Shown here: in pieces, positions 3,049 to 15,912 of the stretch | How the letters are laid out: each line of letters starts with the position of its first letter | Position numbering within the stretch: position 1 is the stretch's first letter | Assembly (NCBI GenBank): GCA_036507075.1 | Contig: DASXQR010000065.1 | Location: 1 to 21,080 of the forward strand | Origin: Acidobacteriota bacterium | GTDB taxonomy: Bacteria; Acidobacteriota; UBA6911; JACQSX01 | DNA length: 21,080 nucleotides | Direction of reading: 5' to 3' | Translations under genes and position numbers: made by a program | The notes under the pieces: generated by a model | Told to the model about the DNA's origin: nothing | Database searches by the model: none | The model's input: the letters and a program-made list of their open reading frames with translations, nothing else

Positions 3049-3066
3049 CTGGAAAACGTTTTCCAG
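3049..3066. promoter_or_regulatory. LacI/GalR-type operator (perfect 18-bp palindrome)
   Basis: CTGGAAAAC|GTTTTCCAG has a central CG and A/T-rich flanks, matching the general LacI-family pattern. It lies 7 nt downstream of a minus-strand -10 box. Confidence 0.75.
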
Positions 3067-3529: not shown

Positions 3530-3649
3530 CGTAGAGACGCGGCATGCCGCGTCTGAGTTGGACGCGACATGTCGCGTCCAAAGCGCCGCAAGGCGGCGCG
3601 GGCGCGATTTATCGCACCCGACTCGGACGCGACGTGTCGCGTCTCTACG
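3530..3649. repeat. GTAG-type REP/REPIN-like composite palindromic element
   Basis: Begins CGTAGAGACGCG and ends CGCGTCTCTACG. Internal palindromes lie at 3535-3554 (perfect 20 bp), 3558-3581 (perfect 24 bp), 3583-3599, 3599-3620 and 3626-3643. Confidence 0.8.
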
Positions 3650-3737
3650 GCATAATGGTCCAGAATCGAGCGACAGTTAGTATCATCCGCTACGGGTGTG
3701 AGTTTCTTTCGCTTTGAAACTTTGGGGGGCAACTTAT

Positions 3738-6700
3738 ATGAGACTGCAAAATGGTTTGTGTTCGGTTTTGGCGATCGTGTTGGCGGCCGCTGGCCCTGGC
3801 GCAGGTCTGCTTTATGGGCAAGCAGTAAAAGCGAGTCTGGTCGGAGCGGTCACCGATGCCACTGGCGCCATCGTGCCCGGTGCGGATGTGACCATCACGG
3901 AAACTAAAACCCGCTACTCACGATCGACTGTAACCAACGACAGTGGCAACTATGTCTTCGGGAACCTGGATCCCGGAGTTTACAAAGTGGAGGTTCAGTT
4001 GCCCGGGTTTAAAAAGGGCGTTCGCGACAACGTGGACGTGCTCGTCAACACTACGGTTCGCGTGGATCTGCAATTGCAGACCGGCGAGATCTCCCAGTCC
4101 GTGGAAGTCATTGGCACTACACCTATGCTGCAGACCGACCGCGCCGACGTGGGACGGAAGTTCGAAGTAGCGCAGATCGAAAACATGCCACTCGGGACAA
4201 ACCGGAATTTTCAGGGATTGATGAATGGAATGCCGGGGGCTGTCCGAGGCCACCGCGAGCATTCGGAATTCTTCAACCCGCAGGACAGCCTGCGCTCGGA
4301 AGTAAACGGCCAGTCCGGTCTTGCCAACAACGTGCAGATTGAAGGAGTCGATAACAATCATCGCACCGGACTCCTGACTGCGCTCATTCCTCCGATTGAA
4401 GCGCTTCAGACCATAGATATCACCACCAGCAACTACGAGGCGGAGTTAGGACGTGCCGCCGGCGCGGTCGTCAACGTGGCGCTCAGGTCTGGAACAAACA
4501 GTTTTCATGGCAGTTTGTATGAGTTCAACCGGGTCAGCAAGCTATCCGCTCGAAACTACTTCGCGTCGGCCAAGGCGCCCACTGTTTCCAACTTATTCGG
4601 CGGCACCATCGGCGGGCCGATCAAGAAAGACAAAACGTTTTTCTTCTTTGATTTTCAGGGAATTCGGGATCGCCGCGGCGATGTCACTATAGTGACCATC
4701 CCAACGATGGAGTTTCGCCGGGGTGATCTGAGTACATCTCCGACCACTATCTACGATCCTGCTACCGGCACGCCAGACGGGAAGAGCCGCACAGCTTTTC
4801 CGGGCAACATAATTCCAGACAAGAGAATCAGCCCTGTTACAAAAAAAATCCTGGCGCTGTTGCCGCCACCTAACCGTCCCGGTATCACCAACAATTTTGA
4901 AAAAGCGACCGTGCGCAGGAAAGATTCCAATTCGTTCGACGCGAAGATTGACCACAAGTTCTCGGAGAATAACACAATTGCTATTCGTTACAGCTTTCAG
5001 CGACCAGTGACTTTCGACCCCGGCCTCTATAGCGATATCGTCGGCGGCCCCAAGGCGGGCGGTTTCGCCGCCAACGGAGTCCAGCGCGCCCAGAATGGAG
5101 CCGCGAACTACACGCACATCTTCAATCCCGGTTTCATTACAGAAATTCGTTTTGGTGTGATGCGGTATCGCAATGATGCGAAAAATCTGGATGCGGGAAA
5201 ACTGACAGCTAACGAACTTGGCATTCCCGGGGTAAATCTGGATGAATTCACCAGCGGCATACCAGGCGTCAACATCACCGGCTACAGTGGCCCGGTGGTC
5301 GGCTTTTCGGCCAGCCTTCCCTGGGTTCGGGCAGAAACCAATTTTGATCTGGTGAGCAACTGGACACGCATTTTCGGCAATCACACCTTAAAATGGGGAG
5401 CCGACGTACGCCGCAATCGTGATGACCTGCTTCAAACACAAAGTTTCAGCCCGCGCGGTCTATTTAACTTCACGGCGGGCCCGACGGCCCTGAACGGCGG
5501 CCCTGCGAGCGGATTTGCGAATGCCTTCGCCAGTTTTCTTCTCGATTTACCGAATAGCTTTGGACGTGACCTGCCGGGAATCTTCCCTACGTTTCGACAG
5601 ACGCAGCTCTTTACGTACGTTCAGGACAAGTGGGTAGTAACACCGAAGCTAACGATGGACATTGGCATGCGTCATGAGATCTATGGCCCTGCCACGCCCG
5701 CTGTACGCGGGGGTTTCTCCAACTACAATCCCACGACGAACAGTCTGGAACTGGCGGGTTTGGGAAGCATCCCCATGGACGCCGGAGTGAATGTGGACTG
5801 GCTTAACTTCGCACCGCGATTTGGCCTGGCTTACCGCGCCAGCGAGAAAACGGTGATTCGTGCCGGTTTTGGAATTTCCATCGATCCCTCGTATCCAGAC
5901 GATAAGTGGGCCTACAATTACCCCGTCAAGCAGAATAACTCTTTTGATCCGGTGAATTCGTTCAGTTGGCCCGGATCTATGGCCACCGGCTTTGGGCCGC
6001 CGTTGCCGGTGCAGCTACCGAGCAACGGCATCATTCCCAATGCTCCCGCGCAGTTTTACCTTGTGCTGCCGCGCCCGCTGCGCCAGGGATATGTGCAATC
6101 CTGGAACGTCACAGTGCAGCGCGCTTTGCCCTGGAAACTTACATTTGAGGCAGGCTACGTCGGGAACCACGGAGTGGGGAATCTCGCCCAGCAGGACATT
6201 AACGCGAGCCGGGTTCCCGGGTCGGGAGCTGCCGGGCGGCCGCTTAATCAGCTTTTTGGCCGGCTTGCGGAAACAAGGACTTGGACACCCTTGGGGACGA
6301 ATTACAATTCGCTGCAGGTCAAATTTGATCGGCGCTTCTCAGATGGTTTTCTTCTGACAACCGCTTATACGTATGGGAAGGGCATCAACTACGTCGATGA
6401 CAATGGCGGTTTGTTCATTCCCATTAATTTCCGCGCGAACCGCGGACGGAGTAACTTTGACCGGGAGCACTCCTATGTGCAGAGCTTCTTATATGAGCTC
6501 CCGTTCGGGCCGGGGCACCGATGGGTGCAGTCTGGTCCGGGAAAGTGGATCGTGGGTGGCTGGCAAATCAGCGGCGTTTTCTCCGCCTATTCGGGCCTTC
6601 CTCTGGACATCACTATCAGTAACACTACTCTCAACGCTCCCGGCAACAATAATCGTCCAAATATGAGTGGGAACCCGGAGATCACGGGAAATATCGGGGT

Positions 6701-6998
6701 GGGTCAAAAATACTTTGACGTCACCAAGTTCTCCCAGCCACCGGCCAACACTTTCGGGAACGTGGGAAGGAGAATTCTTCACGGGCCGAACCTGGTGAAC
6801 CTGGATGCCGCAGTTTTCAAGAAATTCCCAGTCACCGAGAGGATTGCCGGGGAGTTTCGCGTCGAGTCCTTCAATGTAAGCAATACCCCGCATTTCAACA
6901 ATCCGAGCGGGAATTTCAGCGGCACAAGCTTTGGCGAGGTTACCGGCGCTGCCGCAGATCAGAGGCAGTTCCAGTTCAGTCTGAAGTTTGTTTTCTGA
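3738..6998 (+). CDS. TonB-dependent outer-membrane receptor with N-terminal carboxypeptidase-regulatory-like domain (Oar-like, Acidobacteria type)
   Basis: About 1086 aa from the ATG at 3738. Sec signal peptide, then GAVTDATGAIVPGA...GNYVFGNLDPGVYKVEV, plug motif YEAELGRAAGAVVNV.LRSGTN, YVQDKW, NFAPRFGLAY and a C-terminal beta-signal RQFQFSLKFVF. Confidence 0.93.
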   Translation: MRLQNGLCSVLAIVLAAAGPGAGLLYGQAVKASLVGAVTDATGAIVPGADVTITETKTRYSRSTVTNDSGNYVFGNLDPGVYKVEVQLPGFKKGVRDNVDVLVNTTVRVDLQLQTGEISQSVEVIGTTPMLQTDRADVGRKFEVAQIENMPLGTNRNFQGLMNGMPGAVRGHREHSEFFNPQDSLRSEVNGQSGLANNVQIEGVDNNHRTGLLTALIPPIEALQTIDITTSNYEAELGRAAGAVVNVALRSGTNSFHGSLYEFNRVSKLSARNYFASAKAPTVSNLFGGTIGGPIKKDKTFFFFDFQGIRDRRGDVTIVTIPTMEFRRGDLSTSPTTIYDPATGTPDGKSRTAFPGNIIPDKRISPVTKKILALLPPPNRPGITNNFEKATVRRKDSNSFDAKIDHKFSENNTIAIRYSFQRPVTFDPGLYSDIVGGPKAGGFAANGVQRAQNGAANYTHIFNPGFITEIRFGVMRYRNDAKNLDAGKLTANELGIPGVNLDEFTSGIPGVNITGYSGPVVGFSASLPWVRAETNFDLVSNWTRIFGNHTLKWGADVRRNRDDLLQTQSFSPRGLFNFTAGPTALNGGPASGFANAFASFLLDLPNSFGRDLPGIFPTFRQTQLFTYVQDKWVVTPKLTMDIGMRHEIYGPATPAVRGGFSNYNPTTNSLELAGLGSIPMDAGVNVDWLNFAPRFGLAYRASEKTVIRAGFGISIDPSYPDDKWAYNYPVKQNNSFDPVNSFSWPGSMATGFGPPLPVQLPSNGIIPNAPAQFYLVLPRPLRQGYVQSWNVTVQRALPWKLTFEAGYVGNHGVGNLAQQDINASRVPGSGAAGRPLNQLFGRLAETRTWTPLGTNYNSLQVKFDRRFSDGFLLTTAYTYGKGINYVDDNGGLFIPINFRANRGRSNFDREHSYVQSFLYELPFGPGHRWVQSGPGKWIVGGWQISGVFSAYSGLPLDITISNTTLNAPGNNNRPNMSGNPEITGNIGVGQKYFDVTKFSQPPANTFGNVGRRILHGPNLVNLDAAVFKKFPVTERIAGEFRVESFNVSNTPHFNNPSGNFSGTSFGEVTGAAADQRQFQFSLKFVF

Positions 6999-6999
6999 G

Positions 7000-7052
7000 G
7001 ACACGAATTACAGACACGAATTACAGACACGAATTACACGAATTGACACGAA
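7000..7052 (+). repeat. Tandem ACACGAA(TT) repeat, 5 cores with 9-13 bp spacing
   Basis: gacacgaattaca gacacgaattaca gacacgaatt acacgaatt gacacgaa, starting 2 nt after the receptor stop. The core is the same as at 17134-17197. Confidence 0.85.
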
Positions 7053-7188
7053 AATGGATGCAGTCTCGAAGGATGAGCTCCGTGCCAGGGGTCAGTTAAC
7101 CTGAGTAGCGTTGCTCATCTCTCGACCTCGCTAAGTTGTCGAGCAAGCTCAATCCTTTCGCGCCTTCGCGGTTCCAGCCTTTTCCCAT

Positions 7189-7206
7189 CTGGTAAACGTT
7201 TTCTAT
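7189..7206. promoter_or_regulatory. Second LacI-type operator, upstream of apbE
   Basis: CTGGTAAACGTTTTCTAT matches the 3049-3066 palindrome at 15 of 18 positions. A TATATT -10-like hexamer follows at 7229-7234. Confidence 0.6.
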
Positions 7207-7291
7207 TCCCTTGTCTGCGTCTTTCGACTATATTGATGAACCGGATAATTTTGAGTTACCCTGAGTTGCAGGGAAAGTCACTCTCTTCGAA

Positions 7292-8299
7292 ATGCCACTG
7301 AACAGGCGACAATTCTTCTCGCTTCCGCGCCGCGCCCGGCGGCGTCAAGGCTACTGGCTCCATGTATATCGCACGGCCATGGCCTGCCGGTTTGAGATCA
7401 CCCTGCCTCTTGCAGAGACCGCCGCTGTGCAGTGCGCGCGCGACGCGCTCGATAAGATTGACGCGCTGGAAGCAAGACTGACTGTCTATCGCAGTGACAG
7501 CGAAATCGCTTTGATCAATGACAAGGCCGCCTGGCAGCCTGTTTGCCTGGCGCAGGATTTATTACAGTTGATCCTGCTATGCCGCCGCATCCATATGGAG
7601 ACGGATGGCGCATTCGACATTACCACAGGCCCTCTGATCCGCAGTTGGGGTTTCCTGACACGCCAGGGGCGCCTCCCGTCGCGGGAAGAACTGGAATCGG
7701 CGCGCGGCCGCGTCGGTATGGGCCGCGTTCTGCTGGACCCAGACAACTCGACAATTCAGTTTCAAGACCCGGGAATGGAGTTGAACCTGGGGAGCATTGG
7801 AAAGGGATACGCGCTGGATCGCGTTGCTCCCGAACTGAGACGCGATACGCGCGGCGCGCTTCTCAGCGCGGGAAGCAGCAGCGTGCTTGCCGTCGGGAAT
7901 CCTGGAGGATCGCAAGGCTGGCGGGTCGGCGTGCGCCATCCATACCTGAAGCAGCGACGCATCGCCCACCTCTGGCTCCGTGATTGCGCCATGTCGACCA
8001 GCGGAAGCGGGGAGCAGTTTTTCGAGCACGAAGGGAAGCGCTACGGCCACATTCTGGACCCGCGCAGCGGGCAACCGGCCCAGGGAGTTGCCGGAGTCAC
8101 CGTAGTTGCGCGCTCGGCTGCGCTCGCGGAAGCGCTTTCTACCGCGTTTTACGTAGGAGGAGTCCAACTAGCCGGACAATACTGTGCTCGCCATCCCGAC
8201 GTTGTCGCCTTGATGCTGATGGAACAGGACTGGAACACGCCGCTTCTGTTTGGCGCGAGCAATAAGTGCGATGTGGAGATTCTCGATGGACAAAAGTAG
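7292..8299 (+). CDS. apbE: FAD:protein FMN transferase (ApbE family)
   Basis: 335 aa. Motifs [54 protein letters not shown] and VTVVA...AEALSTA. Confidence 0.9.
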
Positions 8300-8816
8300 C
8301 CGCCATCCTTTGTCATCGCTGCAGCAGACCGCGCTGATCCTTCTGCGGACACTGATCGGATGGCACTTCCTGTATGAGGGCTATTACAAAATCGTACAAC
8401 CGGCTTGGAGCTTGTCCGGGCAGCCGCTCCCACGGTGGTCTTCGGTCGGATATTTGAGGGCCGCGTCCGGTCCGCTGGGGGGTTTGCTGCGAAAAATGGC
8501 GGAATCGGGCTGGACGCCGATCATGGACCGCGTCGTGGAAACAGCGCTGCTGGTGATTGGTCTATCCCTGATTTTGGGATTTTTTACGCAACTGGGTTGC
8601 TATGGGGCGCTCGCTCTGCTTGCCCTGTTTTACATCTTGTCCGTTCCCGTTCAAGGTACGCCGCAGCCGGGAACGGAAGGAACCTATCTGCTGGTGAATA
8701 AAAACCTGGTGGAATTGGCCGCTGTGCTGGTCCTGCTGGCCTTTCGAACCGGTGAAATCGCAGGCCTGGATCTGCTTCGCCGTGGTTCCAATCGCGCTGC
8801 ATCGCCGGCGGTTTAG
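8286..8816 (+). CDS. DoxX family membrane protein (DoxD / thiosulfate:quinone oxidoreductase small-subunit-like)
   Basis: The ATG at 8286 has a GGAG RBS and overlaps the apbE stop. Motifs [35 protein letters not shown] and GLD, with about 4 hydrophobic helices. Confidence 0.82.
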
Positions 8817-8872
8817 GTCATCAGTGATTGGTGGTCGTTGGTGGTGCGGTCATGCTGTGTGAAGGTTCAGGA

Positions 8873-8922
8873 GCTTGGTGCCTTGGTGGTAAAAAAAGAA
8901 TTGAACCACGAAGACACCAAGC
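8873..8922. repeat. Inverted repeat of the ACCACGAAG-ACACCAAG family
   Basis: GCTTGGTGCCTTGGTGGT (8873-8890) and ACCACGAAGACACCAAGC (8905-8922) are complementary at 16 of 18 positions. Confidence 0.7.
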
Positions 8923-9020
8923 CTGGTTTGGCAACTTGTGCGGTTGATCCGGGGGCCCTGATAGGTAACGCGAAAACGATAGTAGAATAGAAACTAAATC
9001 TGATTAAGGAACGAAACACG

Positions 9021-10331
9021 ATGAATCTTACTCCCGAACAGAAAACTTTGGGCCGAAGAAACTTCATGAAAGCCTTGGCCGGGACGCCGGCTCTGGCTGC
9101 TTTGGGTGCGGCCGCCGCGGTGCGCGGTCCGGTGAGAGGGGGTCCGGTAAAGGCCGCGCTCATTGGCCCGGGCGGTGAAGGGAAAGTGCTGCTTGGACAG
9201 TGTCGCAGGGAGTTCATCGATATCAGGGCCCTGTGCGACATCAATCCAAAACATCTCCAGCAAGGCTCCGATCTGCTGGTTAAGGCGGGCTACGCGAAGC
9301 CTCGCGGCTATGAAGACTGGCGCGAGATGATTCAAAAAGAAGACCTGGAAGCGGTGTTGATCGCCGTGCCGCTTTGGGCGCACAAAGAAATCACGGTGGG
9401 ATGCCTGGATGCAGGCAAGCACGTGCTTTGCGAGAAGTTAATGGCGTGGGACATTCCCAGTTGTTACCAGATGCTGGAGGCTTCGCAGAAAAACCATCGT
9501 CTGCTTGAGATCGGATATCAGCGTTTCTACAACCCGTTGTACCAGGCCGCTTACGAAAATATCATCAAGAAAAATGTGCTCGGCGACATGTACTATGCCC
9601 GCCTGGTGTGGCACAGAAATGGCAATTGGCGGCGCGACGAACAGCCGCCGCATGCCGGATACAATCCCGACAAGTGGGGATATCCGGACTGGGAGCATCT
9701 TGTAAACTGGCGCCTGTATCGCAAATACGCCGGAGGGTTGATGGCCGAGTTGGGAAGCCACCAGGTGGCTGTTGTCAATTGGTTCTTCGACGCTCAGCCG
9801 ACTTCCGTTTACGCCTCGGGTGGAATATACGAGTATAAGGATGGACGGGAAGTGAATGATCACATTTATGTCACCTACGAGTACCCCGGAGGACGGACAG
9901 CAACCTTTACGTCGATTCAGTCCAATAAATTCGACAATTATTACGAGCAATACATGGGGACCAAAGGGACCCTGATTCTCTCGGGCGAAGCCGAGGCCTA
10001 CCTGTTCAGCGAAGGTGAAGAGTCCGCCAAACCGACCAGCATGGAGCTGACCAAGCAGACTTCCGCGCCGGTCCTCGATGCATCGGCAAGCCGCGTAGCC
10101 GACGCCGCCGGAGGCCGAACCGTGAGCGATGGAACAGGCGAAAAGCTGGACCGGCTGATATCGTATCGGGAAGAGATTGCCGGATTGTGTTCGGCCATTC
10201 GAACCGGTGCCGCCTTGCGCTGCGGCCCTGAAAGAGCGGTCAAGTCGGCGACTGCCTGCCTCAAGGCAAATGAGTCGGCAGACAAACGTTTGCGCCTGGA
10301 TCTGTCTTACACGACGGAACCAAGACCGTAG
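9021..10331 (+). CDS. Tat-exported Gfo/Idh/MocA family NAD(P)-dependent oxidoreductase
   Basis: GRRNFMK twin-arginine motif plus Ala-rich H-region, Rossmann [17 protein letters not shown] (EKP variant), IGYQR and [18 protein letters not shown]. Confidence 0.9.
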
Positions 10332-10333
10332 AA

Positions 10334-10354
10334 GTTGCGGGTTACGGGTTTCGA
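10334..10354 (+). repeat. Short GTTRCGG heptamer array
   Basis: gttgcgg gttacgg gtttcga starts just after the stop. It is the same family as the minus-strand reading of 16054-16162. Confidence 0.55.
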
Positions 10355-10359
10355 ATTGT

Positions 10360-10454
10360 AAAGCCGCAAAGCGGGTGACAAGAATTGTAGCCGGGGTGCG
10401 TAAGCCTCCGGAAAGCCGGATTCAGTTATCAAAGCTGCGCAGCGGCGCCAGAAT
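10360..10454 (+). repeat. GTAG-hairpin REP-like element with flanking small hairpin direct repeats
   Basis: GTAG (10387-10390) precedes the hairpin CCGGGGTGC-GTAA-GCCTCCGG. It is flanked by AAAGCCGCAAAGCGGG..AGAAT and AAAGCTGCGCAGCGGC..AGAAT. Confidence 0.5.
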
Positions 10455-10487
10455 CCAGGCTGCCAATGATCCTTTAAATTGCCAAAC

Positions 10488-11450
10488 ATGTATTCATCCA
10501 AAATGTCTCGTCGTCGATTTGTGGCCGGCGCCGGAGTGCTTTCCGCTGCCCTGCCGCTGCGGATTATGGCCAATCGTTCTCCCTTCCGGCTTTCAATCAT
10601 CACCGATGAAATCTCCCAGGATTTCGCCCATGCCCTTGAAGTGGCATCCAAGGAATTTGGCTGCAGTTGGGTGGAGCTTCGAGGCATGTGGGACAAGAAC
10701 CTGATGAGGCTTGACGACAAAGAAGTGGAGGAAGTCGGAAAGATTATAGAAAAATTCCAGATGCAGGTATCCTGCATCGCCTCTCCACTCTTTAAGGTCG
10801 ACTGGCCGGGCGCGCCGGTTTCAAAGTTCAGCCCCCGGCGCGACCAGTTCAATGCCGACTTTACATTTGACCAGCAGGACGAGGTGCTGCAACGCTGCAT
10901 CCGGCTGGCGAAGGTCTTCAAAACCGACCGGGTTCGCTGCTTTGATTTCTGGCGTCTGGACGATCCAGCGCCTTATCGTGCCGCCATGGACGACAGGCTG
11001 CGCCGGGCGGCTGATCGTGCTTTTAAACAGGGAATCGCGCTCGTTCTGGAAAATGAGACTGCCTGCAATAGCGCCACCAGCGCGGAGGCAGTCCGCACGT
11101 TGAAGGCTGTCAATGCTAACGGCCTGATGCTGAACTGGGATCCGGGTAATGCCGCCTCGCGGGGTGAGACGCCCTTTCCGGACGGTTACAAATTGCTGCC
11201 GAAAAAGCGGCTTGGCCACTTGCACTGCAAGGACGTCATCCGCAATAACAGCCCGGAAGGTTATGACTGGGCAGCAGTAGGCAGGGGCGTGATTGATTAC
11301 GTTGGGCTGTTCCGCGCCCTGAAAAAGGACGGCTATCGGCGCGCTGTTTCTCTGGAAACCCACTGGCGGGGAGCGGGGACGGCGGAAGCATCGTCGCGCG
11401 AAAGTATGGCAGGGCTGAAGGGAAAATTGCGCCAGGCAGGCGCACTCTAA
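10488..11450 (+). CDS. Tat-exported sugar phosphate isomerase/epimerase (xylose isomerase-like / AP endonuclease 2 TIM barrel)
   Basis: SRRRFV Tat motif and metal-ligand pattern LENE, WDPGN, HLHCKD, SLETH. The start is uncertain (10479, 10488 or 10503). Confidence 0.85.
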   Translation: MYSSKMSRRRFVAGAGVLSAALPLRIMANRSPFRLSIITDEISQDFAHALEVASKEFGCSWVELRGMWDKNLMRLDDKEVEEVGKIIEKFQMQVSCIASPLFKVDWPGAPVSKFSPRRDQFNADFTFDQQDEVLQRCIRLAKVFKTDRVRCFDFWRLDDPAPYRAAMDDRLRRAADRAFKQGIALVLENETACNSATSAEAVRTLKAVNANGLMLNWDPGNAASRGETPFPDGYKLLPKKRLGHLHCKDVIRNNSPEGYDWAAVGRGVIDYVGLFRALKKDGYRRAVSLETHWRGAGTAEASSRESMAGLKGKLRQAGAL

Positions 11451-11541
11451 GCAGAATGCGGAAGGCAGAAAGCGGAAAGCGGAATGCGGAATGCGGAATG
11501 CGGAATAAAGCTGTTCGTTGTCAGTTGTCCGTGGTCAGTTG
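11451..11541 (+). repeat. Composite heptamer array: (GCRGAAN)x8 - AAAGC - TGTCAGT-like x4
   Basis: Starts at the first base after the TAA. Units run from gcagaat to gcggaat over 11451-11506, then tgttcgt tgtcagt tgtccgt ggtcagt. Confidence 0.9.
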
Positions 11542-11596
11542 GTCTAGTTTTTATCAGGGTTCGAACTGCCCTACCCAACAGTAGAGTCTTGCAGAT

Positions 11597-11701
11597 CTGA
11601 CCACTGACCACTGACCACTGACCACTGACAACGGACCACTGACAACGGACCATTGACAACGGACCACTGACAACGGACCACTGACAACGGACCACTGACA
11701 A
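11597..11701 (+). repeat. Heptamer array (CTGACCA)x4, then (CTGACAA CGGACCA)x5 and CTGACAA; 15 units
   Basis: Read directly from the sequence. It is reverse-complementary to 11512-11541 and ends just before the AAGGAGG RBS of the next gene. Confidence 0.92.
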
Positions 11702-11721
11702 CGACAAAAAGGAGGTCAAAC

Positions 11722-13050
11722 ATGTCAAATTCGCGTCGGAATTTCATTAGAACCATGGCCGCCGGTGCTGCCGGAATGGCCGTTACGTCGCGTGCTTCCA
11801 GTTACGCTCGAATCGTCGGAGCCAATGATCGCGTGCGTGTGGGAATTGTTGGGTTCTCGGACAGGTTTCGGTCCGCGCTGTTGCCCGCCTTTCTGACTCA
11901 TGCCGGCTCCTTGAACTTTGAATTCGTCGCCGTGTCGGATATCTGGAGCCGCCGGCGAAACGAAGCGGTTGACGCCGTGGAGAAGCGCACCGGGAAAAAA
12001 ATTGCCACTGCGCGAAACAACGACGAACTGTACGACCGCAAGGACATCGACGCGGTCATCGTGGCGACGGCGGACTTCCAGCACGCGCGCCACGCAGTGG
12101 AAGCCGTGCGGGCTGGATGCGATGCCTACGTGGAGAAGCCGCTGGCAAATACGATGGAGGATGCGCGCCTGGTTTTGAAGGCTGTGGAAGACACCAGGAA
12201 GATCGTGCAGATCGGAACCCAGCGCCGCAGCACGCCCAATTATATTCAGGCTGCCGAGTACCTTCGCTCCGGCAAGTTCGGCGATATCAATGCAGTCGAA
12301 ATGACCTGGAATGTGAACCAGCCCGGTCGCTGGCGCCGTCCAAAACTGGTGGCCGAGATCCGAAAAGAAGATACCGACTGGAACCGTTACCTGATGAATC
12401 GCCCCAAAGAAGAATGGGACCCGCGCAAGTATCTCGAGTTTCGCTTGTTCTGGCCTTACTCATCCGGCATTCCCGATCAATGGCTGGTGCATCAGATTGA
12501 TACTGTGCACTGGTTCACCGGATTGAATCATCCCCGGAGCGTGGCGGCAAACGGAGGAATCTACCAATGGCATGACGGGCGCCGCAATTACGACACCATA
12601 ACGGCCGTCTTCGATTACGGCCCGCCCAAAGATATGTCAAAGGGTTTCCAGGTGATTTACTCATCGCGCATGACCAACTCTGCCGGAGGCGTCAAGGAGT
12701 GCTACTTCTCCAATGGCGGCAAACTTGATCTGGATAAGAACGAAGTCACGCCCGAAGGGGGGCTGCGCGAAAGGGAAGCTTCGGAAATGGGGCTGGAGGC
12801 CAACCTGCTGCCAAAAATGAAACTGGCCGAGGCGTCCAAAGTTGAAACTGCGGCCAACACGGGAGAGGACGACAGTACTTCTGCCCACATGAGAAACTGG
12901 CTGGAATCTGTACGCAGCCGCAGGGCGCCCAACGCCGACATTCGCGCCGGATACAATCACTCGGCAGCCTTGTGCATGACGATCGCTTCTATTCACACAG
13001 GCAAGCGCGTCACGTTTGATGACGCAAAGCAGGATGTGGTGATCGGGTAA
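11722..13050 (+). CDS. Tat-exported Gfo/Idh/MocA family oxidoreductase
   Basis: AAGGAGG RBS, SRRNFIR Tat motif, [29 protein letters not shown] and [21 protein letters not shown]. Confidence 0.92.
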
Positions 13051-13060
13051 GCGGGAGAGC

Positions 13061-13193
13061 GTGGAAGGCGGAAGGCGGAAGGCGGAAGGCAGGAGGCAGA
13101 AGGCAGGAGGCAGAAGGCAGAAGGCAGGAGGCAGAAGGCAGAAGGCAGAAGGCAGAAGGCAGGAGGCAGGAGGCAGAAGGCGGAAAGCGGAAT
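13061..13193 (+). repeat. Heptamer array GCRGRAG x19, with a short inverted arm at 13233-13248
   Basis: Units gcggaag, gcaggag and gcagaag, ending gcggaaa gcggaat. CTATTCCGACTTCCGC downstream can pair with the 3' end of the array. Confidence 0.92.
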
Positions 13194-13297
13194 AGTCAAA
13201 CCTCATTCTTCAGAGCAGACCCAGTCGCCCTGCTATTCCGACTTCCGCATTAGGGGCGGTTTTTGAAGGCCTTAAAACATAAATTTGAGGATGAATT

Positions 13298-14302
13298 ATG
13301 TCGAAACGAATATTGGTTTTTCTACTGGCACTCGCTTCAGTTGCGACTGTTATCCTTGCAGCAGAAGACGGGAAATCAGGCGTCACAGTCACCGTCAATG
13401 AAGCGGCACAGCGCGTCGATGTGGCCATCGACGGCCAGCCGTTCACCTCGTATCTTTGGGCCGGCAATTTCAAGAAACCGGTCCTGTTTCCGATTCGCAG
13501 CGCAAAGGGTACCGTTGTAACGCGCGGGTATCCGATCGAAGCGCGTGCGGGAGAGGACAAAGACCATCCCCATCACATCGGGCAGTGGCTCAATTACGGC
13601 GATGTCAACGGGGTCGATTTCTGGGGGAATTCTGCCGCTCTGCCCCCGGAACGCGCCAAGAATGAGGGAAGCGTCGTGCATCGCTCGATCAAAAAGGCCG
13701 AAAACGGCAAGGACAAGGGCGTGCTGGAAGTAACAGCGGACTGGGTCATGCCGGATGGCTCAACCGTTTTGCGCGAGGAATCCCGGTATATTTTCCGCAA
13801 GGCGCCAAATGCGCGAATCATCGATCGCGTGACGACGCTGACGGCGGGGGATCAGAAGGTAATCTTCGGCGATACCAAAGAAGGAATGTTTGCATTGCGC
13901 GTGGCCCGTTCATTGCAGCACCCGCCAAAAGGTAAATCCGATCCCGTCTCTACTGGCATGTATCTGAGCAGTGAAGGCAAAACGGGAGACGACGTGTGGG
14001 GAACGCGAGGCCGCTGGATGATCCTGACCGGTGCGGTCGAATCCGAGCCGCTCACGCTTGCCATTTTCGACCACCCGAAAAATCCGGGATTTCCCACCTA
14101 TTGGCACGCGCGTGGCTACGGCCTTTTTGCCGCCAATCCGTTCGGACAAAAAGATTTCACCGGTGGAAAAGAGGAGATGAAATTCACTCTGGGCCCGAGG
14201 CAATCCACCACATTCCGTTATCGGACCTCGGTTGTGTCCGGCACCGCGACGGCCGATCAGGCTGAAGCGGAGTACAAGAAGTTCATTCAGGAAATCAAAT
14301 AG
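13298..14302 (+). CDS. Secreted DUF6807 / 'PmoA family' protein (not a methane monooxygenase subunit)
   Basis: GAGG RBS and Sec signal MSKRILVFLLALASVATVILA. Motifs KPVLFPI, VTRGYP, DHPHH, FGDTKEG, DHPKNP and WHARGYGLFAANPFG. Confidence 0.78.
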   Translation: MSKRILVFLLALASVATVILAAEDGKSGVTVTVNEAAQRVDVAIDGQPFTSYLWAGNFKKPVLFPIRSAKGTVVTRGYPIEARAGEDKDHPHHIGQWLNYGDVNGVDFWGNSAALPPERAKNEGSVVHRSIKKAENGKDKGVLEVTADWVMPDGSTVLREESRYIFRKAPNARIIDRVTTLTAGDQKVIFGDTKEGMFALRVARSLQHPPKGKSDPVSTGMYLSSEGKTGDDVWGTRGRWMILTGAVESEPLTLAIFDHPKNPGFPTYWHARGYGLFAANPFGQKDFTGGKEEMKFTLGPRQSTTFRYRTSVVSGTATADQAEAEYKKFIQEIK

Positions 14303-14310
14303 TCTTTTTC

Positions 14311-14363
14311 ACCACAAAGGCACAGAGGACACAAAGTTTTTGTGTTCTTTGTGCCTTTGTGGT
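14311..14363 (+). repeat. 25-bp stem hairpin built from CACAAAG-type 8/9-mers
   Basis: ACCACAAAGGCACAGAGGACACAAA-gtt-TTTGTGTTCTTTGTGCCTTTGTGGT. The only two non-Watson-Crick positions are G-U pairs on the + strand. Confidence 0.85.
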
Positions 14364-14382
14364 TGGTGTCAAAGAGAAAACC

Positions 14383-15912
14383 GTGGCCACGTCAAAACAG
14401 CCCGTCCTGGAGCAGCCCGCACCGGCGCCGGCGAGCGAGCCGGGAAAGATTCGTCATCTGCGCTGGTATATCTGCGGCCTGCTTTTTCTGGCTACCACCA
14501 TCAACTACCTGGACCGGCAGACGGTCAGTGTGCTCAATAAGCCGGTGCTCCAGGAACAGATCGGCTGGACGGAATCAGGCTACGGCTGGATTCAATTCTC
14601 CTTCCAGTTTGCGTACGCCATCATGCTGGGCGTTTCGGGGCGCCTGCTGGATTTGTTTGGCGTGCAGCGCGGTTTCACGGCCGCGGTAATTGTCTGGAGC
14701 CTGGCCGCTGTTGCGCACGCGTTTGTCCGCACTCCAGTCGGTTTTGCTGCGGCGCGATTTGCGCTCGGAATTGGAGAAGCGGCGAACTTTCCGGCCTCGA
14801 TCAAAGCGGTTGCGGAATGGTTTCCAAAGAGGGAACGCGCGCTCGCAACCGGCATTTTCAATTCGGGCACGAACGTGGGAGTGATGCTCTCCCCTTTGAT
14901 TGTCTGGCTCGCCATGGCATGGCATTGGCAGGGCGCGTTCATTTTGACCGGCATCACAGGTTTTCTCTGGCTGATTCTGTGGAAATGGTTTTACCGCTCG
15001 CCCGAGGAACACCCTAAGCTTTCTTCCGCCGAGCTCGCGCTCATTCTCAGCGACAAGGAACCTCCCGCAACGGCGGTGCGCATTCCGTGGGTGACGCTTC
15101 TTCGTTATCGGCAGGCATGGGCGTTCTTAATCGCCAAGATGATGACCGATCCCGTGTGGTGGTTTTATCTTTACTGGCTTCCTTCCTACCTGAAACAGGA
15201 GCGCGGTGTTTCGGCGCTTACCGCCGCCGTGATGCTGATCTATCCCTACATCGCGGCGGACGTTGGAAGTGTCGGCGGGGGATGGCTCTCTGGTTTTCTG
15301 ATGAATCGGGGTTGGAGGAGCGGCCCGGCGCGACTCACCGCGATGATGGTGTTTGCGCTCTGTATGCCTGGCGCCATCTGGGCTGTGATGACAAACAGCT
15401 TTTGGACAGCTCTTTCGCTCATCAGCCTGGCCACGGCTGCGCACCAGGCCTGGTCGGCCAACGTATTTACAATGGCGTCGGACATGTTCCCAAAGAAGGT
15501 AGTGGGCTCGGTTGTTGGGCTTGGCGGGATGTGCGGCGCCATCGGCGGCATGTTCATGACGCTGATTGCTGGAGGCGTGCTGCAGTGGTTTGGAAGCTAC
15601 ACGCCGCTGTTTATCGCGGCCGGATTGATGCATCCCACGGCGCTGGCCGCCGTGGTTCTTCTCGCCGGAAGGGACTTGCGCCAGGCCGATGTCGAGGAAA
15701 CCCTGAAAACGGGAGCGAGTGCCACTCTGATGCTCGTAGGCGGGATACTGTCCGCCGTCGGCGCGGCCCTGGCGTTGCTGGTTTGGAATCGCTGGGATTT
15801 TATCGTGCAGGCGTCACATTCCACCAGCACCGCAGCCCAGGGCCTGGTGGCCTCGCTCGGTGTAGCCCTCCTGGGAATGGCTTTGATCTACGCCGGCAGA
15901 GCCCGCAAATAA
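14383..15912 (+). CDS. MFS transporter, ExuT/hexuronate (ACS) type, with a C-terminal extension
   Basis: Motifs LRWYICGLLFLATTINYLDRQ, GIGEAANFPASIKAVAEWFPKRERALATGIFNSG, DPVWWFYLYWLP and AAHQAWSAN. The GTG at 14383 is preferred because the ORF-track start (14359) lies inside the hairpin. Confidence 0.88.
   Translation: MATSKQPVLEQPAPAPASEPGKIRHLRWYICGLLFLATTINYLDRQTVSVLNKPVLQEQIGWTESGYGWIQFSFQFAYAIMLGVSGRLLDLFGVQRGFTAAVIVWSLAAVAHAFVRTPVGFAAARFALGIGEAANFPASIKAVAEWFPKRERALATGIFNSGTNVGVMLSPLIVWLAMAWHWQGAFILTGITGFLWLILWKWFYRSPEEHPKLSSAELALILSDKEPPATAVRIPWVTLLRYRQAWAFLIAKMMTDPVWWFYLYWLPSYLKQERGVSALTAAVMLIYPYIAADVGSVGGGWLSGFLMNRGWRSGPARLTAMMVFALCMPGAIWAVMTNSFWTALSLISLATAAHQAWSANVFTMASDMFPKKVVGSVVGLGGMCGAIGGMFMTLIAGGVLQWFGSYTPLFIAAGLMHPTALAAVVLLAGRDLRQADVEETLKTGASATLMLVGGILSAVGAALALLVWNRWDFIVQASHSTSTAAQGLVASLGVALLGMALIYAGRARK

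Follow-up and report, generated by a model that had tools for sequence, protein, structure and literature searches.

We analysed a 21,080-nt stretch of DNA from an Acidobacteriota bacterium (hereafter the window), which is contig C65 of a 6.1-Mb genome and whose proteins have their named homologues for the most part in Acidobacteriota. On its plus strand lie three consecutive genes: apbE (7292-8299, Pfam PF02424), encoding an ApbE flavin adenine dinucleotide (FAD):protein flavin mononucleotide (FMN) transferase of a signal-less 'RR' subfamily; doxX (8286-8816, ATG at 8286), encoding a DoxX-like four-helix membrane protein and predicted electron outlet or anchor; and gfo (9021-10331, PF01408/PF22725/PF02894), encoding a Gfo/Idh/MocA dehydrogenase of the twin-arginine translocation (Tat) type, here called Gfo, the predicted client of ApbE. 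The coordinates of the open reading frames bear out the arrangement given in a preceding interpretation of the bare DNA (the sequence-only reading): apbE and doxX overlap by exactly 14 nt (8286-8299) and the Tat-type gene comes next. From this arrangement it had been proposed that the dehydrogenase is flavinylated and hands electrons via DoxX to quinone. Our sequence comparisons make covalent FMN on Gfo likely.

A profile search of Acidobacteriota with Gfo matched 24 of 201 genomes at E ≤ 1e-70, and all 25 matches other than the window's own were inspected (12 top-tier, E < 1e-129, and 13 lower-tier). The order apbE-doxX-gfo is found at 12/12 top-tier loci, one apbE being cut by a contig end, and apbE lies within ~6 kb of gfo at 11 of the 13 lower-tier loci. 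From the side of the transferase, all 11 ApbE matches of at least 316 bits outside the window fall at top-tier Gfo loci. Among 49 loci from a genome collection doxX lies upstream of gfo in 37 (eight have too little upstream DNA and four hold distant Gfos), and apbE is adjacent in seven. At 80 metagenomic doxX loci the gene directly upstream is apbE in 46 and another gene in 20, and the gene directly downstream is gfo in 53 and another gene in 13, with insufficient DNA in 14 cases on either side. The trio is common, not fixed.

Genes of the pair also occur together when unlinked. Out of 151 Planctomycetota genomes, 10 have a top-tier Gfo (at least 420 bits), and the ten best scores for the ApbE subfamily (at least 271 bits) come from exactly these genomes; the two genes are adjacent in four of these and distant or on separate contigs in six. 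The lower-tier Planctomycetota loci contain apbE in 10 of 11 cases. Where no apbE is present at the Gfo locus (24 genomes), an ApbE of the subfamily scoring at least 320 bits is encoded in 19 and a weaker, split or cut one in four, and the remaining genome (2.7 Mb) has none. We give no P value for the co-occurrence because kin genomes do not count as independent and the scoring covered no more than 7-14 candidates in each genome. Finally, ApbE and Gfo are fused in a single chain in four cases (L108, L109, P0323, P0336); ApbE comes first, and the Gfo part is preceded by a twin-arginine segment inside the chain. Conserved synteny and fusions, for which a survey had been suggested, are both present.

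A candidate acceptor site maps to the C-terminal part of Gfo. AlphaFold2 predicts a confident fold for this protein with the exception of residues 333-374 (10017-10142, plus strand), which at a pLDDT (predicted local distance difference test) below 50 appear as a disordered loop and candidate swinging arm. Within this loop D353-A-S-A-S357 (10077-10091, plus strand) forms a putative non-canonical flavinylation site with Ser357 as the predicted acceptor. In 120 close homologues (60-100% identity) Asp353 is kept in 116, and Ser355 and Ser/Thr357 in all 120, compared with a mean conservation of 0.62 in the rest of the loop. According to PMC12052999, the canonical motif is D-x-x-[S/T]-G-A-[S/T], in which an Asp-to-Ala exchange has a minor effect and a Gly-to-Ala exchange keeps about half of the modification. 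Clustering at 50% identity gave 150 Gfo representatives, 106 of them with the whole loop. The motif [ST]GA[ST] occurs in 10 of these 106 loops (5,815 residues) versus a single match in 43,242 residues outside the loops, and shuffled loops contain it 2.1 times on average (maximum 9 in 2,000 trials). Six loops are fully canonical (DFTSGAT, DGVSGAT, DSVTGAS, DGMSGAT, DTVTGAS and DGRSGAT), and LDTGAT and LDATAT represent bridging forms toward the window motif; MAFFT places ASAS in register with SGAT. The window-type pattern is likewise enriched (10 versus 1.5), which is weaker evidence because the pattern was written from the same data.

In a maximum-likelihood tree from a quick search, calculated for 64 selected rows without bootstrap, all 38 rows of the motif-bearing kind fall into one clade with an SH-aLRT (Shimodaira-Hasegawa-like approximate likelihood ratio test) support of 97, and the other three Gfos of the window lie outside. 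Among the 43 Gfos of the genome only that at 9021-10331 has the motif in its C-terminal loop. The sequence-only reading had treated all three Tat Gfos as possible clients; this does not hold, since only the protein at 9021 combines the motif with membership in the ApbE-linked clade, and the other Gfos of the window were rejected as clients. In Planctomycetota (L029-L053) the first copy of tandem Gfo pairs carries an h-region (the hydrophobic stretch of a signal) and DTQAS while the second has neither (10/10 pairs, which may derive from one or two events), and this suggests a heterodimer with one arm. The second paralogue retains the RR pair and the catalytic residues, which makes it a candidate hitch-hiking Tat subunit. 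In a small sample of Bacteroidota plasmid records, the Spirosoma Gfo, a member of the same clade, has a canonical DGVTGAT at the aligned place and adjoins a secreted ApbE, and variant sites stand beside short, signal-less ApbEs in Bacteroides finegoldii (AGTS) and Persicobacter psychrovividus (AGGSS). Chondrinema Gfo contains DGVSSAT, and no apbE was found within 7 kb of its gene. The Bacteroidota type of Gfo was found in 0/151 genomes of the Planctomycetota sample, and no relatives were found in viral contigs. The gut clade member B. finegoldii (L213:5834-12231) shows the order GH43 - Gfo(AGTS) - 80-aa membrane protein - Gfo - DUF1080 - signal-less ApbE - GH115, in which an uncharacterised small membrane protein takes the position of DoxX.

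The window ApbE scores 229.5 bits to PF02424 (cut-off 25.6) and, as judged by its signatures, belongs to a separate subfamily. These comprise RRxF[LF] without an h-region, a stretch of 12 residues not reproduced here, and GxSS; the invariant AMAC, Asn165 and GxSS of the subfamily replace the MGT, DLGG and GGD of ordinary ApbEs. The catalytic triad, placed by spacing against Ser241/His257/Asp285 of Vibrio cholerae ApbE (PMC12052999), would be Ser237-His253-Glu280. RRxF[LFIM] is found at the N-terminus of 118/119 homologues, of which one has a hydrophobic window above 1.6 and none a lipobox, so that a typical lipoprotein or secretion signal is lacking; two other ApbEs of the same genome reach 2.1-2.9 on the same scale. 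Owing to this lack of h-region and lipobox, attachment of FMN probably takes place in the cytoplasm before Tat export of Gfo, for which we have good, slightly lower confidence than for the modification itself. The ApbE-Gfo fusions fit such an order because ApbE precedes the internal signal, and signal-less ApbEs are already described in PMC12052999. The twin-arginine consensus of ApbE (7292-7321, 118/119) without hydrophobic region may dock on TatC, ride along with Gfo or be a relic.

The statement that the window encodes no usual ApbE client was confirmed inasmuch as no FMN_bind domain was found there. The genome has four apbE genes and a single FMN_bind domain, located beside a different apbE on contig C133, and neither NqrB/RnfD nor DUF2271 was found in this genome, which is 95.7% complete; a genome search for DUF3570 gave no signal from the controls either. 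We therefore rejected the idea that the window apbE serves Rnf/Nqr-type targets encoded elsewhere, as no NqrB/RnfD family was found in the genome and the lone FMN_bind protein has its own apbE. As far as domain searches of the genome tell, no ordinary client explains the window apbE.

The other three apbE genes lie in different surroundings. On C133 (L057:6801-10887) apbE stands with the small FMN_bind protein (ITGAT), a 162-aa membrane protein and a porin-like outer-membrane protein, and without Rnf/Nqr. On C80 (L056:3400-7344) there is a secreted ApbE whose back-to-back neighbours are a protein of the FGE-sulfatase fold and a Tat Gfo belonging to a different clade. The FGE-fold protein contains D-A-V-T-R-P-T, and D-x-x-[ST]-x-P-[ST] recurs in 9/9 homologous loci, eight of which have a Gfo and four an apbE within 1.5 kb; this motif makes it a likely further non-canonical ApbE client. 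The fourth apbE, on C33 (L055:2394-9418), faces a 1,223-aa protein without Pfam match, a 321-aa protein and a DUF362 protein. In other genomes, an FMN_bind-like part is fused to ApbE in ~590-aa proteins of several Planctomycetota (L125, L126), and a 1,055-aa Acidobacteriota protein joins sulfatase-like, carbohydrate-binding-like and ApbE parts (L120:2535-5702, labels judged by eye).

Gfo consists of a Rossmann N-terminal domain and an alpha/beta C-terminal domain, with the motifs GxGxxG, Asp73, EK138-139 and Glu243/His247, and the catalytic His of the family is present. Its N-terminal segment (9021-9131, plus strand) combines a conserved n-region MNLTPEQK with a twin-arginine motif and an Ala/Leu-rich h-region (G-R-R-N-F-M-K, i.e. 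RRNFMK plus 17 residues not reproduced here), that is, RRxF followed by a hydrophobic stretch, and may be a Tat signal or an uncleaved anchor. RRxF is present in 119/120 homologues and a hydrophobic window above 1.6 in 118/120, from which export by Tat is predicted. Because MNLTPEQK is conserved from Acidobacteriota to Planctomycetota, Gfo may stay membrane-anchored after crossing. Residue 73 is Asp in 118/120 homologues and Glu in two. An Asp at this position of the Rossmann fold points to nicotinamide adenine dinucleotide (NAD; reduced form, NADH), so that the cofactor is likely NAD and not its phosphate NADP; of the bound NAD(P)H invoked earlier, probably only the NADH part stands. The closest solved sequence is the glucuronide 3-dehydrogenase P2B11 (E 2e-17, a weak lead). 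With 43.4 bits to NCBIfam BT_2158 (NF058561; cut-off 750) Gfo falls outside the BT2158-type glycoside 3-dehydrogenases. From its neighbours and the closest solved sequence, the substrate is most likely a glycoside or a uronic acid, with oxidation at its C3.

The DoxX protein of the window matches PF07681 with E 8e-4 and 20.4 bits, i.e. under the cut-off of 23.6, while four of the five homologues scanned lie above it. The window protein gave no match to DoxD (PF04173), no doxA was found among the window genes, and one Planctomycete homologue is marginally above the DoxD cut-off. The model of the window protein predicts four long helices (pLDDT 88). An alignment of 81 rows, which used 68 of the 80 metagenomic loci, shows the signature RxxIGWHFxxEG...NKNLxE...GLD with conserved polar residues Arg21, His27, Glu31, Lys35, Lys139 and Glu143 (partly selected by the search pattern). 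It contains no [ST]GA[ST]-like motif, and DoxX was rejected as an ApbE client.

A screen of loci L058-L127 for haem partners shows that proteins with 6-7 haems adjoin the clade Gfo in eight loci lacking DoxX (L072, L073, L075, L111, L113, L114, L117, L124), and in L122 such a protein stands beside both Gfo and DoxX. These neighbours give matches to cytochrome c7/c3 and one weak match to cytochrome b561; in L115 a MauE-like protein takes the partner position. DoxX is, by the gene content of these loci, dispensable in some clade members. In L073 (7402-9888) the six-haem membrane cytochrome between gfo and apbE contains six tandem G-A-T-S copies readable as [ST]GA[ST], possibly a multi-flavinylation site or a simple repeat.

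We propose that the signal-less ApbE would attach FMN to Ser357 on the flexible loop of Gfo in the cytoplasm, after which the folded protein with bound NAD would cross the membrane by Tat. In the periplasm Gfo would oxidise a sugar and form bound NADH; the tethered FMN arm would take over the hydride, a step that we infer, and then swing across to DoxX; this protein in turn would reduce quinone and so pass the electrons to the quinone pool. That DoxX is the quinone site or outlet we consider somewhat favoured, and for the whole chain from ApbE via FMN-Gfo and DoxX to quinone we estimate a probability of roughly 0.58.

Several findings weigh against this chain. The window motif V-L-D-A-S-A-S departs from the canonical pattern at three positions: its Asp lies at -4 instead of -6, position -3 is Ala, and -2 has Ser where Gly is expected. 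At position -1, moreover, 50/120 homologues have Glu. The strict motif is present in only 10 of the 106 representatives and the window type in 10, the others having mostly further variants judged by eye. In the triad of the window ApbE Glu280 occupies the place of an Asp found in 117/119 homologues. Despite room, apbE is not directly upstream of doxX at 20/80 metagenomic loci, nor gfo directly downstream at 13/80, and kin genomes in the samples are not independent. For Gfo as the client the comparative support is nonetheless strong, through synteny, unlinked co-occurrence, fusions and a conserved acceptor aligned to canonical motifs. On the side of the outlet, His27 of DoxX is replaced by Gln in L008 and L010, and neither DoxX nor a multihaem partner is seen in the Bacteroidota members, in seven of the lower-tier loci screened (L070, L071, L108, L110, L112, L118, L119) or in L109 and L116, the last with one single-haem protein. 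Foldseek gave no match for DoxX at E ≤ 0.001, and the closest solved fold in a wide search is the assembly factor NACHO/TMEM35A (Z 11.2, root-mean-square deviation 3.3, 125 residues aligned), a Z within the usual range for helical bundles; the other matches are general helical bundles, and no cytochrome b, DsbB or other redox protein is among the 50 fold matches listed.

The strongest competing explanation, which we regard as unlikely, accepts a flavinylated Gfo and assigns to DoxX the role of a mere membrane anchor or assembly chaperone; the FMN electrons would then be taken up by oxygen, by a carrier in solution or by a partner dehydrogenase. The likeness to NACHO fits such a role, and it says nothing for a redox role of DoxX. 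No redox cofactor site is evident in DoxX, and many clade members have ApbE and Gfo without it, often with a second Gfo alongside. However, DoxX alternates with multihaem cytochrome c/b modules within the clade, and the doxX-gfo pair occurs in records titled rumen or gut Thermoguttaceae or planctomycetes, i.e. from oxygen-poor habitats. Moreover, DoxX/D proteins are subunits of quinone-linked dehydrogenases: PMC10084136 describes DoxD as handing electrons to quinone and BtdS as the smaller of a dehydrogenase's subunits. The proposed link of DoxX to quinone is indirect; it gains from the alternation with cytochromes and is weakened by a closest solved fold that is not a redox enzyme.

Clearly less probable is that the D-x-S-x-[ST] loop forms a substrate-binding or oligomer lid, that Gfo recycles NAD internally like GFOR and the 3-keto-glycoside enzymes, and that ApbE either provides FMN through an FAD pyrophosphatase activity or has a different protein as its target. 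In many Gfo enzymes the active site is covered by loops in this position, the window motif departs from the canonical one, and the closest solved relatives (P2B11 glucuronide 3-dehydrogenase and GFOR) use bound NAD(P) without flavin. A lid would leave unexplained why canonical D-x-x-[ST]-G-A-[ST] appears at the same place in the same clade, as well as the ApbE-Gfo fusions and the unlinked co-occurrence; no other client is nearby, and DoxX has no such motif. Very improbable, finally, is a use of the same parts in the reverse direction (quinol to FMN to NAD, reducing a periplasmic keto-sugar) or with a cytoplasmic catalytic domain and the RR segment as anchor: ApbE and the second Planctomycete paralogue have RR without an h-region, so that RR alone is no proof of export, and the n-region of Gfo is conserved and modelled with confidence, but the Gfo h-region is kept in 118/120 homologues, NAD+ reduction from menaquinol is uphill, and an enzyme in the cytoplasm would have free NAD and no need of an arm.

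The chain from ApbE via FMN-Gfo to DoxX resembles four groups of known systems. ApbE-flavinylated extracytosolic carriers (FMN_bind of NqrC/RnfG/NosR/PplA; DUF2271, DUF3570, Flavodoxin_4 and FMN_red), as presented in PMC8238504, PMC11334425 and PMC12052999, likewise have apbE beside the client, a Ser/Thr acceptor in an [ST]GA[ST]-like motif and a predicted membrane redox partner. Here, in contrast, the client would be an NAD-binding Gfo/Idh/MocA protein with a shorter motif, D-x-S-[AE]-[ST], on a loop predicted to be disordered, ApbE lacks an export signal, and the partner is DoxX. With the Tat-exported Gfo enzymes with bound NAD(P), namely Zymomonas GFOR (PDB 1ofg/1evj), B. thetaiotaomicron BT2158 and P2B11 (PDB 8tdi), Gfo shares the Rossmann and EK motifs, the Tat signal, the fold (TM-score 0.62-0.66 by query length) and glycoside-catabolism neighbours at ~20% identity; what its clade has in addition is a putative flavin arm, an ApbE dedicated to it and a partner in the membrane. 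The known enzymes are believed to reoxidise their NAD(P)H with a second sugar, and the acceptor for BT2158 is stated to be unidentified (PMC8121099). The cytoplasmic Klebsiella ApbE with its soluble fumarate reductase and the Trypanosoma ApbE-fumarate reductase fusions (PMC12052999) also represent signal-less ApbEs and ApbE-client fusions with FMN covalently bound to a peptide segment of the enzyme, as predicted for Gfo; the fumarate reductase stays intracellular and is FAD-dependent, whereas Gfo is predicted to be NAD-dependent and exported after modification. DoxD of thiosulfate:quinone oxidoreductase and BtdS of hydroxyhydroquinone dehydrogenase (PMC10084136) are likewise small four-helix DoxX/D proteins beside a dehydrogenase. 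Unlike in these systems, the window has no DoxA or BtdL, its protein has no PF04173 match and lies below the DoxX cut-off, and quinone binding is putative.

Neither 'Gfo' nor 'Dox' appears as a term in the main text of the ApbE-client surveys PMC8238504 and PMC11334425, nor in three supplementary files of PMC8238504, the larger gene-cluster tables of which may list such neighbours. No published ApbE-modified Gfo or apbE-doxX-gfo trio was found in the literature searched, which mostly excludes subscription papers, in line with the earlier remark that no characterised system of such composition is known. The interpretation given by the sequence-only reading is partly supported, and we regard the locus as a form of ApbE-dependent electron transfer outside the cytosol in which the client family is new. 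At slightly better than even odds it stands for a class, widespread and so far undescribed, of NAD-dependent dehydrogenases that act on sugars in the periplasm and have a covalent FMN arm. This arm would be installed before export by a dedicated cytoplasmic ApbE reading a shortened motif, and it would make the trapped NADH an electron donor for respiration via an exchangeable membrane module, which is DoxX in some lineages and a multihaem cytochrome in others.

The periplasm has no free NAD pool, which is why exported Gfo/Idh/MocA enzymes are assumed to recycle NADH on a second sugar. If correct, our proposal would explain how they turn over under such conditions, with net oxidation, and would connect the degradation of glycosides with respiration in Acidobacteriota, Planctomycetota and Bacteroidota, among them Bacteroides of the gut. 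The ApbE clients would gain a large family and a shortened motif, and some 'orphan' apbE genomes of the 2021 survey would be explained. For the DoxX family, a defined role in biochemistry with a testable function would follow. The predicted flavinylation can be tested directly and cheaply.

The genes around the trio read as a sugar-use locus with a TonB receptor-like protein, two TIM-barrel proteins, three further Gfos, DUF6807 and a major facilitator superfamily (MFS) transporter; an aldo-keto reductase, a DHDPS-like protein and an OYE-like enzyme are also encoded. The TonB-dependent receptor-like outer-membrane protein (3714-6998, plus strand) lies upstream, as in the two closest relatives (L006, L007). 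Downstream (10479-15912, plus strand) follow genes for a Tat TIM-barrel protein (AP_endonuc_2), a second Tat Gfo without motif, DUF6807 and the MFS transporter; TIM barrel and DUF6807 also follow gfo in both relatives, and MFS in L006. A motif scan detected a palindrome 5' of apbE (7190-7205), which from its appearance is a candidate LacI-type operator, and a perfect palindrome of the same type (3049-3066) in the divergent region before the TonB receptor gene; four matches of this type compare with 0.42 expected by shuffling. Of the single LacI-type operator placed before the whole set by the sequence-only reading, the palindrome at 7190-7205 is retained, but a second one exists and the core 5' of apbE was not found in L006 and L007. 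The doxX-gfo spacer of 204 bp contains a REP-like hairpin repeat (8873-8922) that is dispersed genome-wide (194 blastn-short hit lines). A promoter scan of 6950-11800 revealed no sigma-70 site, and no terminator candidates above chance. A 13-nt unit in three tandem copies lies 3' of the TonB gene (7000-7050) and a palindromic array 5' of it (3530-3649).

In Planctomycetota, RR-type apbE genes unlinked to gfo (L078-L099) often adjoin a gene for a ~210-260-aa membrane protein with 'TGxGLPxPEE', which is presumably DedA-like. Near gfo and apbE in the lower-tier loci L074, L075, L111, L114, L115 and L117 we often observe a protein with an F5/8-type galactose-binding domain and a PMT-type glycosyltransferase-like membrane protein.

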